IMG/VR virus record: IMGVR_UViG_2850784384_000006
DNA length: 25,436 bases
From: a virus
Lineage: Duplodnaviria > Heunggongvirae > Uroviricota > Caudoviricetes
Reading direction: 5' to 3' (one strand)
Below are positions 22,559-25,436 of this stretch, in pieces. The notes beneath the pieces are model-generated. The model searched no databases. It saw nothing but the letters and a program-made list of their open reading frames with translations, and was not told the origin of the DNA. Positions within the stretch are counted from its first letter, which is position 1. Each line of letters starts with the position of its first letter. The position numbers and the translations under genes are program-made.

Positions 22559-23164
22559 TTAGCCCATCATTTTTCTATACGCCTCTGCAGCCTGCTCCGG
22601 CGTTAAGTTGGTAATTTCTGTTCTGACTGGTCCTCCGTCAGCACCAGTCACTTCATTTTTGACATTGTCTTTAAACGCCTGAACAGAAACATGACGCCCG
22701 AGCAACTCAAGGTTTTTAACCTTATCAGGCCATTTGATTTTCTTCAGGAGAGCAGCACTATCTGCTGATGCCATCTCGACGACATCCATTCCTGATAGCG
22801 TTGTACGCCACACCTTAGGCCAGTCTTTAATCTGCTTCAGTTCGCCATTGGCAAGCAGAATGTCAAGCACGTCCATCTGATCGATTTCAGTCAGCCGTCG
22901 CAATACATAGGCGGCGTCTATACCTACCTCTTCATTGCGTTCAGCCTTTAGCTCAGCAATGCGATCTGCTATGTCAGGTTTTGACAGGTTCTCGCTACCA
23001 GTGGCGCGAGCAGTTTTCTCGCTGTAACCCGCCCTGATAGCTGCCTGAGTGGCGTTTAAATCTTTTAAATATTCCCTGCAGAACAGTTCCTGCTTAGGTG
23101 TGAGCTGTTTCAAATCACACCTCCGAAACATTGCTCCAATTTCTATGATTAACGATGTCAGCAA
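22559..23164 (-). CDS. Terminase small subunit
   Basis: 201-aa ORF containing ...[32 protein letters not shown]..., the conserved HTH signature of Terminase_2-type small subunits. True start may be the Met 12 codons in. Confidence 0.75.
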
Positions 23165-23430
23165 TCATGGTAGTGGATACGCCATATCTCTTTGCTAAAG
23201 ACCTAAGCCCATTACCTACACTCCCGCGCACATACTCGCGGCGAATGCAGATGACATCGCACTCTTTTAATTTCGCCATTCCGTTCTTTTCACCTGAACG
23301 GTCAGGGTATGAGTTTCTGCCTCGCCTTGACCTGTCACGATTATTGTCAGCGACAGTACCTATAATCAGATGGTCAGGATTCACGCATGATGGATTATCG
23401 CATTTATGCCTAACAACAAGGTCCTTGATG
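23115..23430 (-). pseudogene. HNH homing endonuclease gene, 5'-truncated by IS911-like insertion
   Basis: ORF contains HKCDNPSCVNPDHL (HNH His/Cys/Asn signature) followed by a basic AP2-like region; the first 8 codons of the track ORF 23115..23456, including its GTG start, are encoded by the IS end, so the native N-terminus is missing. Confidence 0.65.
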
Positions 23431-23502
23431 TGAAGTGGCACACTGAATTTGGCCACCTGAACAGAGGTGATATGCTCACCTCAGAACAACACAGGTGCTC
23501 CA

Positions 23503-23805
23503 ATGAAAAAAAGAAATTTTAGCGCAGAGTTTAAACGCGAATCCGCTCAACTGGTTGTTGACCAGAAATACACGGTGGCAGATGCCGCCAAAGCTATGGA
23601 TGTTGGCCTTTCCACAATGACAAGATGGGTCAAACAACTGCGTGATGAGCGTCAGGGCAAAACACCAAAAGCCTCCCCCATTACCCCGGAACAAATTGAA
23701 ATCCGTGAGCTCAGGAAAAAGCTACAACGCATTGAAATGGAGAATGAAATATTAAAAAAGGCTACCGCGCTCTTGATGTCAGACTCCCTGAACAGTTCTC
23801 GATAA
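23503..23805 (+). CDS. IS911-like OrfA, copy 2
   Basis: Identical translation to copy 1 OrfA. Confidence 0.85.
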
Positions 23806-23831
23806 TCGGGAAACTCAGAGCGCATTATCCT

Positions 23832-24671
23832 GTGGTCACACTCTGCCATGTGTTCGGGGTTCATCGCAGCAGCTACAGATACTGGAAAAACCGTCCTGAA
23901 AAACCAGACGGCAGACGGGCTGTATTACGCAGTCAGGTACTTGAGCTACATGGCATCAGCCACGGTTCGGCCGGAGCAAGAAGCATCGCCACAATGGCAA
24001 CCCGGAGAGGCTACCAGATGGGACGCTGGCTTGCTGGCAGGCTCATGAAAGAGCTGGGGCTGGTCAGCTGTCAGCAGCCGACTCACCGGTATAAACGTGG
24101 TGGTCATGAACATGTTGCTATCCCTAACTACCTTGAAAGGCAGTTCGCCGTGACCGAGCCAAATCAGGTGTGGTGCGGTGATGTGACCTATATCTGGACG
24201 GGTAAGCGCTGGGCGTACCTCGCCGTTGTTCTCGACCTGTTCGCAAGAAAACCAGTGGGCTGGGCCATGTCGTTCTCGCCGGACAGCAGGCTCACCATGA
24301 AAGCGCTGGAAATGGCATGGGAAACCCGTGGTAAGCCCGGCGGGGTGATGTTCCACAGCGATCAGGGCAGTCATTATACGAGCAGGCAGTTCCGGCAGTT
24401 ATTGTGGCGATACCAGATCAGACAGAGTATGAGCCGGCGCGGAAACTGCTGGGATAACAGCCCAATGGAACGCTTCTTCAGGAGTCTGAAGAACGAATGG
24501 ATGCCGGTGGTGGGTTACGTAAGCTTCAGCGAGGCAGCTCACGCCATAACGGACTATATCGTTGGATATTACAGCGCACTAAGACCGCACGAATATAACG
24601 GTGGGTTACCCCCAAACGAATCGGAAAATCGATACTGGAAAAACTCTAACTCGGTGGCCAGTTTTTGTTGA
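23832..24671 (+). CDS. IS911-like OrfB, copy 2 (expressed by -1 frameshift as OrfAB)
   Basis: Identical translation to copy 1 OrfB; A AAA AAG heptamer present at about 23754..23760. Confidence 0.8.
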
Positions 24672-24679
24672 CCACTTCA

Positions 24680-25436
24680 AATCCGAAGAAAATTGCCGGA
24701 CAAACCGCTCGCTGACATATCAACGAAAGAGGTGGCAGCAATGCTAAACACCTACGTAGCAGAAGGTAAAGCGGCTTCCGCAAAATTAATCAGGTCAACC
24801 CTTGTTGACGTTTTTCGTGAGGCAATAGCCGAGGGGCATGTAGCAACGAATCCGGTAACAGCAACCCGCACAGCAAAGTCAGAAGTAAGGCGCTCAAGGC
24901 TGACAGCTAATGAGTATGTCGCGATTTACCATGCAGCCGAACCTCTCCCAATCTGGCTGAGGCTAGCAATGGATTTGGCTGTCGTTACAGGGCAGAGAGT
25001 CGGCGATTTGTGCAGAATGAAATGGTCAGACATAAACGACAACCATCTTCACATTGAACAGAGCAAAACAGGGGCTAAGCTCGCCATTCCGCTGACGCTA
25101 ACGATTGACGCGCTCAATATCTCATTGGCTGATACACTACAGAAATGCAGGGAGGCCAGCAGCAGTGAAACTATAATCGCATCAAAGCATCACGATCCGC
25201 TTTCCCCGAAAACAGTATCGAAGTATTTTACAAAGGCGAGAAATGCATCAGGACTCTCATTTGATGGAGACCCGCCAACATTCCATGAACTGCGTAGCCT
25301 GTCGGCGAGGCTATACCGTAATCAGATTGGCGATAAGTTTGCTCAACGTCTTCTCGGACATAAATCAGATTCAATGGCGGCGCGGTATAGGGACAGCCGT
25401 GGACGGGAATGGGACAAAATTGAAATCGACAAATGA
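24680..25436 (+). pseudogene. int: Lambda-type tyrosine integrase, 5'-truncated by IS911-like element (C-terminal about 250 aa retained)
   Basis: Frame open from the IS boundary to TGA at 25434..25436; translation ...RLAMDLAVVTGQRVGDLCRMKWSDI...TFHELRSLSARLY...LLGHKSDSMAARYRDSRGREWDKIEIDK closely resembles the lambda Int catalytic domain (R, H-x-x-R, H, Y). No authentic start: the track ORF begins at a TTG 13 nt after the IS end. Confidence 0.85.

Follow-up and report, generated by a model that had tools for sequence, protein, structure and literature searches.

Prophage decay driven by insertion sequences (ISs) is a well-known, textbook process in Shigella, and the locus considered here is, in substance, an already published instance of it. 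The oac1b prophage remnant of Shigella flexneri serotype 1b strain 1997020 (GenBank JN377795) was reported with the gene order torR-torT-IS1-oac1b-tail/baseplate/head-terL-terS-IS911-int (99% to HK022 Int)-truncated ymcA (Sun et al. 2012, PMC3630932). According to that paper, the prophage is incomplete and has no genes for recombination, immunity, replication, or lysis; attempts at induction failed in 20 strains of serotype 1b, and overlapping polymerase chain reaction (PCR) gave the same organisation in serotype 1b strains (PMC3630932). A second related system is the Shigella serotype-converting phage Sf6, which carries the same insertion sequence (99.9%) in its nin region. In the Sf6 record, IS911 lies inside a complete 39-kilobase (kb) genome, and the phage is presumably viable with it. 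A third comes from a long-term evolution experiment with E. coli, in which 14 of 14 deletions associated with the IS3-family element IS150 were stepwise adjacent deletions without duplications (PMC11708052).

The stretch analysed here, hereafter the window, comprises the 25,436 nucleotides (nt) of IMG/VR virus record IMGVR_UViG_2850784384_000006 and holds the same oac1b remnant. Close to its right end, a copy of IS911 (copy 2) separates fragments of two phage genes, and we hold with high confidence that this segment, unlike the IS911 of Sf6, marks the place where an IS911-associated deletion removed part of the interior of a single prophage. What carries this conclusion is that both breakpoints are placed, both genes are cut short, copy 2 has no duplication, relatives show what the missing block contains, and the topology is that of a single prophage. 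In the available text of the 2012 paper, the truncation of int is not stated, the HNH endonuclease fragment is not recognised, and IS911 is not called a deletion junction; the integrase is treated as possibly functional, and three open reading frames (ORFs) are given to IS911, one of which may be the HNH fragment (PMC3630932). The junction consists of three features:

23115-23430, minus strand: 3' end of an HNH_3 endonuclease gene (316 nt, codons 62-165 and the stop codon), bordering the junction on the left.
23431-24679, plus strand: IS911 copy 2 (1249 base pairs (bp), apparently intact; orfA 23503-23805, orfB ending at 24671), flanked by ATG and AAT.
24680-25436, plus strand: 3' end of a gene for an HK022-type tyrosine integrase (residues 107-357 and the stop codon), bordering the junction on the right.

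Both flanks are truncated genes, as the first-pass annotation, made from the letters of the window, had supposed. The HNH fragment is identical at 104 of 104 positions to residues 62-165 of a 165-amino-acid (aa) homologue from E. coli LR-71-1 (L003), so that the first 182 nt (61 codons) of the gene are gone from the window; its HNH_3 domain is incomplete, the fragment covering profile positions 18-46 of 46 and the intact homologue positions 1-46. On the other side, 248 of 251 residues are identical to residues 107-357 of HK022 Int, and the first 317 nt are gone, which is about 106 codons, close to the approximately 100 first estimated. Five relatives with an intact HNH gene (L003, L039, L040, L041, and L042) lose homology to the window exactly at 23430 and continue with the HNH 5' end, followed by lambdoid lysis, Q, nin, replication, immunity, and recombination genes. 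Upstream of 24680, HK022 and the metagenomic contig L008 run on into the 5' part of int, and L008 is intact across the int breakpoint (...AAAATCAGGGC/AATCCGAAG). In intact relatives the two flanks do not lie next to each other, and homology breaks off at the very ends of the IS, which places the segment among IS-associated deletion junctions and bears out the earlier proposal that copy 2 marks one. That copy 2 might be a simple insertion with a decayed duplication, nothing having been deleted, has in its favour the ease with which a 3-bp duplication is lost, and nothing further; these alignments refute it, given that the flanks lie in different genes 16-21 kb apart in every intact relative, and we regard it as virtually excluded.

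Copy 2 had been described as lacking a target-site duplication, and it does: its flanks read ATG/AAT and, extended to four bases, GATG/AATC. The other IS911 of the window serves as an internal control for this observation:

8111-9359, plus strand: IS911 copy 1 (1249 bp), a simple insertion in a Dit-like baseplate gene (200 aa) with the 3-bp duplication GCA.

Copy 1 is flanked by GCA on either side, and its empty site, ...TTATCTGCA/ACGCTAACG, is uninterrupted in CP026772.1 (L032) and in draft L026. The empty site fixes the IS ends to the base, and a shift of boundaries therefore cannot rescue a duplication at copy 2; matching 3-bp repeats, which a more careful definition of the ends might have uncovered, did not appear. 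Among the three insertion sequences of the prophage, a duplication is missing only at copy 2, and this absence of the expected 3 bp concerns the history of the copy, not the identity of the element. Judged from the sister sequences, copy 1 is a recent, strain-specific simple insertion that had no part in the deletion. As a recombination partner of copy 2 it was rejected, since it has its own GCA duplication and is absent from sister strains. The first suggestion, an IS-mediated adjacent deletion or a recombination between two IS copies, is supported as to the deletion, on breakpoints and topology; if there was a recombination partner, it was not copy 1, which was inserted later.

The label IS911-like, used at first, was right in kind, but both copies are 99.9% identical over their full length to the IS911 annotated in phage Sf6, and on this match the element is IS911 itself. 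The two copies have the same orientation and differ at a single base (T at 9255, C at 24575). Each contains orfA with a HTH_Tnp_1 domain and orfB with an rve domain (Pfam), and each has the slippery site A AAA AAG for the -1 frameshift between the two frames (at 23754 in copy 2). Matching copies carry the RefSeq name 'IS3-like element IS911 family transposase', and the gene call in CP034060.1 gives the transposase as the full 389-aa frameshift fusion. The termini, TGAAGTGG...CCACTTCA, form imperfect inverted repeats (IRs) that start with TG and match at 24 of 36 positions. The orfB stop codon TGA (24669-24671) is in frame with the int fragment, with seven sense codons between them and then a TTG at 24693, which is probably a coincidence.

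What the deletion removed can be read from the relatives that diverge at 23430. In LR-71-1, the HNH gene is followed by Rha, an Rz-type lysis protein, endolysin, and holin, then by Q and nin genes, and further on by replication genes (DnaB-like and O), by cII, cro, and cI, by cIII, kil, and recombination genes, and finally by an xis-like regulator and int, with 16.2 kb between breakpoint and int. The same organisation extends across more than 18 kb in E. coli E89, and in IMG/VR contigs (L040, L042/L174) some 20-21 kb separate the HNH breakpoint from int or the contig end. Alignment to these relatives puts the loss at about 16-21 kb, an estimate taken from mosaic genomes; related phage genomes measure 40.7-43.3 kb, and about 23 kb of phage DNA are left here. 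The gene order of the window agrees with that of annotated relatives, and no xis, immunity, replication, antitermination, or lysis gene is found in it, all ORFs lying between oac1b and the HNH fragment being tail, baseplate, head, portal, or terminase genes. The initial statement that xis and the immunity, replication, late-regulation, and lysis genes are absent is hence correct. Its description of a lambdoid prophage applies to the genome organisation alone: the virion module is of the myovirus type, with sheath and baseplate J.

The right-hand fragment keeps the catalytic residues R212, H308, R311, H333, and Y342 (PF00589 at 8.6e-42) and is without the first third of the core-binding domain and without the arm-binding domain PF09003, which occupies residues 1-68 of the full-length int in L021 (CP026871.1). 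According to established lambda Int biochemistry, the arm-type domain is needed for both integrative and excisive recombination. Resting on that biochemistry, int would here be a pseudogene whose truncated product is unable to perform arm-dependent recombination. The remnant is unable to excise because Int has no arm-binding domain and xis is gone, and as xis, the repressor, the replication genes, Q, and the lysis genes are all absent, it is unable to be induced, replicate, lyse, or excise. The first reading of the prophage as non-inducible agrees with the failed induction of serotype 1b strains described in the available text of the 2012 paper (PMC3630932).

The two ends of the prophage show how the fragments belong together. 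The window is 100% identical to CP034060.1 across the retrieved stretches (14.5 kb and 7.4 kb), and in this context torR, torT, and attR (CAACCTTTTTCACCTAAAG/GATGACAAAA) lie to the left of the window and are followed by IS1; the P arm at attR shares 88.6% identity with HK022 attP. The attP P arm was sought in window positions 1-450 and is not there; it sits beyond IS1, outside the window. Phage HK022 integrates at an attB in the torS-torT intergenic region (PMC6814406). At the right end, P' arm and core occupy the 90 nt after the int stop codon and share about 96% identity with HK022. The element between attR and oac1b is the following:

1-331, minus strand: end of IS1 (insA side), cut by the window edge, with Pfam InsA domains.

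IS1 is a simple insertion with the 9-bp duplication GAAATGGAC (read from L023 5162-5938 and window 332-340), and the attR-proximal end of the prophage is therefore otherwise intact. The layout is attR-oac1b-tail...terS-HNH'/IS911/'int-attL. Both ends stand at the HK022 site in native order and orientation, which speaks for a deletion and against an inversion or the joining of unrelated DNA.

On its host side, attL borders gfcD (ymcA), not torS. The att junction on the int side reads CAACTTATTCACCT/GAAGTATAACGCGGGC and lies 70-90 nt past base 25436 (L014 reverse strand; L004 about 860-880); native E. coli gfcD reads CAACTTACCGCCCT/GAAGTATAACGCGGGC and HK022 attP reads CAACTTATTCACCT/AAAGGATGAC. 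Since gfcD contains a pseudo-core matching at 14 of 18 positions, the deletion from torS to gfcD looks like an integrase-mediated recombination at a secondary attachment site in gfcD. The available text of the 2012 paper reports no att site and leaves the torS-ymcA deletion unexplained (PMC3630932), whereas both att junctions are identified here. The canonical HK022 attachment site and the apparent secondary-site recombination in gfcD are two small additions to the 2012 account, and neither changes general understanding.

A sister genome carries a different scar in the same prophage. CP026871.1 (L021) has the torT-attR-IS1-oac1b-tail fibre stretch as in the window, up to window base 2992, where IS911 (L021 8600-9848) joins a DUF2612 baseplate gene to nt 88 of an HK022-type xis. 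This junction, TTT/ATA, is again without duplication; the int of CP026871.1 is full-length (357 aa) and 100% identical to the window fragment over the shared 757 nt, and the deletion has left no virion genes. The window and CP026871.1 each retain DNA that is missing in the other, so neither scar derives from the other, and their independence implies a common ancestor in which xis, the virion module, and the whole of int were still present. The torS-to-gfcD deletion, being common to both, is older than either IS911 deletion. The IS911 copies at the two scars are one base apart, which fits common descent without proving it.

Both window-type junctions occur base for base in three independent complete genomes (LR213452.1, CP097831.1, and CP034060.1), while many draft contigs end inside IS911; the window type is common and that of CP026871.1 rare. 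These genomes also bear on whether the junction could have arisen in assembly, by a false join across an IS present in several copies. Short-read contigs do break inside IS911, itself a repeat, on both flanks; against an artefact stand the three complete genomes, the int contigs of 0.9-1.0 kb that show the IS911 end at the same base, and the overlapping PCR of the 2012 study, which confirmed the organisation in serotype 1b strains (PMC3630932, available text). We see next to no chance of a false join.

An internal deletion in one prophage would have unfolded as follows. The starting phage would have been temperate, with a myovirus virion module, a lambdoid early region, and oac1b beside the attachment site, and an HK022-type integrase would have placed it at the HK022 attB between torT and torS. 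IS911 would have entered the prophage later, and an IS-associated deletion would then have taken everything from codon 61 of HNH, upstream of terS, to codon 106 of int. The losses would have comprised the 5' ends of both HNH and int, genes of the Rha or KilA type, the genes for holin, endolysin, and Rz, Q and the nin region, the genes for replication and for recombination, cII, cro, and cI, and xis. The remnant would have kept oac1b and the virion module, the latter suffering further damage in this strain.

The scar is compatible with recombination between two directly oriented copies or with adjacent deletion from a single copy, the latter by a local hop followed by recombination or by intramolecular transposition. 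We lean towards one resident IS911 followed by one or more adjacent deletions, which we rate as somewhat probable and favour over two-copy recombination, because of the IS150 precedent and because both Shigella variants then need about four events, against about six by two-copy recombination. The IS150 deletions share with our scar an IS at the deletion endpoint without duplication and the possibility of stepwise extension from a resident copy (PMC11708052). The earlier insertion was seen directly in the time series of that system, whereas here no precursor genome was found. The ancestral breakpoint sequences bear no resemblance by eye to the IS911 ends, which gives no support to IR-targeted insertion.

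Two co-oriented IS911 copies, inserted independently in HNH (with an ATG duplication) and in int (with an AAT duplication), would have yielded the same deletion: RecA-dependent recombination would have excised a circle of 16-21 kb and left a hybrid copy. This route classically leaves mismatched flanks, IS911 has been active in the lineage, copy 1 being a recent insertion in the same prophage, and many IS911 copies are reported for S. flexneri genomes in the available text of the 2012 paper (PMC3630932). Once the CP026871.1 variant is included, however, it calls for four separate IS911 insertions in one prophage plus two recombinations, and neither parental insertion was found in the 5,426 E. 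coli genomes or the Shigella contigs examined. We consider recombination between two copies a serious, if less probable, candidate.

Three points qualify this account, the first of them as to the route and the third as to the size of the loss. First, no intermediate turned up in the genomes searched, be it an IS911 with a duplication in HNH or int or an HNH'/IS911/'xis ancestor. Neither junction nor precursor was present in the 5,426 complete E. coli genomes, among which the HNH'/IS911 join was absent and no place covered at least 80% of the query; exact-protein look-ups with the int fragment, TerL, and the HNH fragment returned the same junctions only and no intermediate, and an E. coli search with the oac1b and tail fibre region for an intact ancestor gave just the Sf6-type oac (88.6%) and separate tail-fibre matches. 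Second, the coverage of the source genome CP034060.1, in which displaced 5' ends of HNH or int might lie, extended to stretches of at most 10 kb either side of the looked-up genes, and it is the topology at attB that speaks for a deletion. Third, no fully intact relative was found that pairs this virion module with an HK022-type int. A search of IMG/VR for HNH and an HK022-type int on one contig gave one such contig, UViG_2534681700_000005, with a different virion module; the 45-kb phage contig L042/L174 has the HNH-terS junction and an HK022-type int, with a virion module other than this one.

The last point could also be read as a sign that the int fragment and the virion module stem from two prophages, for example tandem lysogens at the HK022 attB, fused by a much larger deletion bounded by IS911. 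Prophages at this site are common and varied: a similar P arm lies beside torT in 60 E. coli genomes, and E. coli GMF054 has a P22-like remnant at the HK022 attB. Yet the layout from attR to attL is what is expected of one lambdoid prophage and nothing requires a second, lambdoid phages are mosaic, and L042/L174 unites the HNH-terS junction with an HK022-type int. We therefore think an origin from two prophages very improbable and retain the internal deletion in a single one.

Similar arrangements exist in E. coli RM14723 (L001 12002-13250) and GMF054 (L002 12001-13249), where an IS911-family element likewise abuts a 5'-truncated HK022-type int. Their junctions are duplication-free (TAG/TAA and GTT/ATC), as here. 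On its other side the IS borders a gene from the phage interior (replication gene P or a P22 gp17-like gene), and the loss from int amounts to about 96 nt and about 854 nt, compared with 317 nt in the window. Both prophages differ from that of the window, as does one of the two chromosomal sites, and the IS of RM14723 is only 90.7% identical to IS911. All four independent junctions (window, CP026871.1, RM14723, and GMF054) turn the same IS end toward int or xis, and the transposase gene runs in the direction of int, a pattern without significance at n=4. One could speculate that IS911-family elements come to lie beside lambdoid int non-randomly, through targeting of int-xis or through selection for an IS-driven 'locking-in' of cargo such as oac1b by loss of excision and lysis functions; we judge this very unlikely.

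The value of these results lies mainly in annotation: int is to be listed as a pseudogene, the HNH ORF as a fragment, and the oac1b element as a fixed, immobile remnant, which explains why induction cannot transfer serotype 1b conversion. Two further genes of the remnant complete the picture:

22559-23113, minus strand: terminase small subunit gene terS (184 aa, TTG start; Pfam Terminase_2; gene call in CP034060.1).
394-1395, plus strand: oac1b O-antigen acetyltransferase (Acyl_transf_3), cargo at the attR-proximal prophage end.

The first intact gene to the left of the junction is terS, and the HNH gene had initially been called terminase-associated. This part of the first-pass annotation needs correction: the HNH gene is accessory and absent in some close relatives. 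The gene upstream of terS (L003 31273-31770) is missing from E. coli E89 and from vB_EcoM phages (compare L012 31774-31902), and a second HNH gene in LR-71-1 (L003 36537-37043) splits ninF. Such behaviour is typical of free-standing, homing-type genes, and the HNH protein would not necessarily be a packaging partner of the terminase. The oac gene of the window is 88.5% identical in nucleotides to Sf6 oac, and 88-89% is reported for oac1b in the available text of the 2012 paper (PMC3630932).

Copy 1 and a 138-nt deletion, both present in the strain of the window, are not mentioned in that text (PMC3630932). The 138-nt deletion lies at window 5024-5031, between 8-nt repeats (relative to L022, L024, L026, and L032), and fuses the genes for a sheath-initiator (117 aa) and a spike (246 aa) into a 315-aa ORF (4760-5707). 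Compared with these sequences, it is best taken as a further, strain-specific step in the decay of the virion module.

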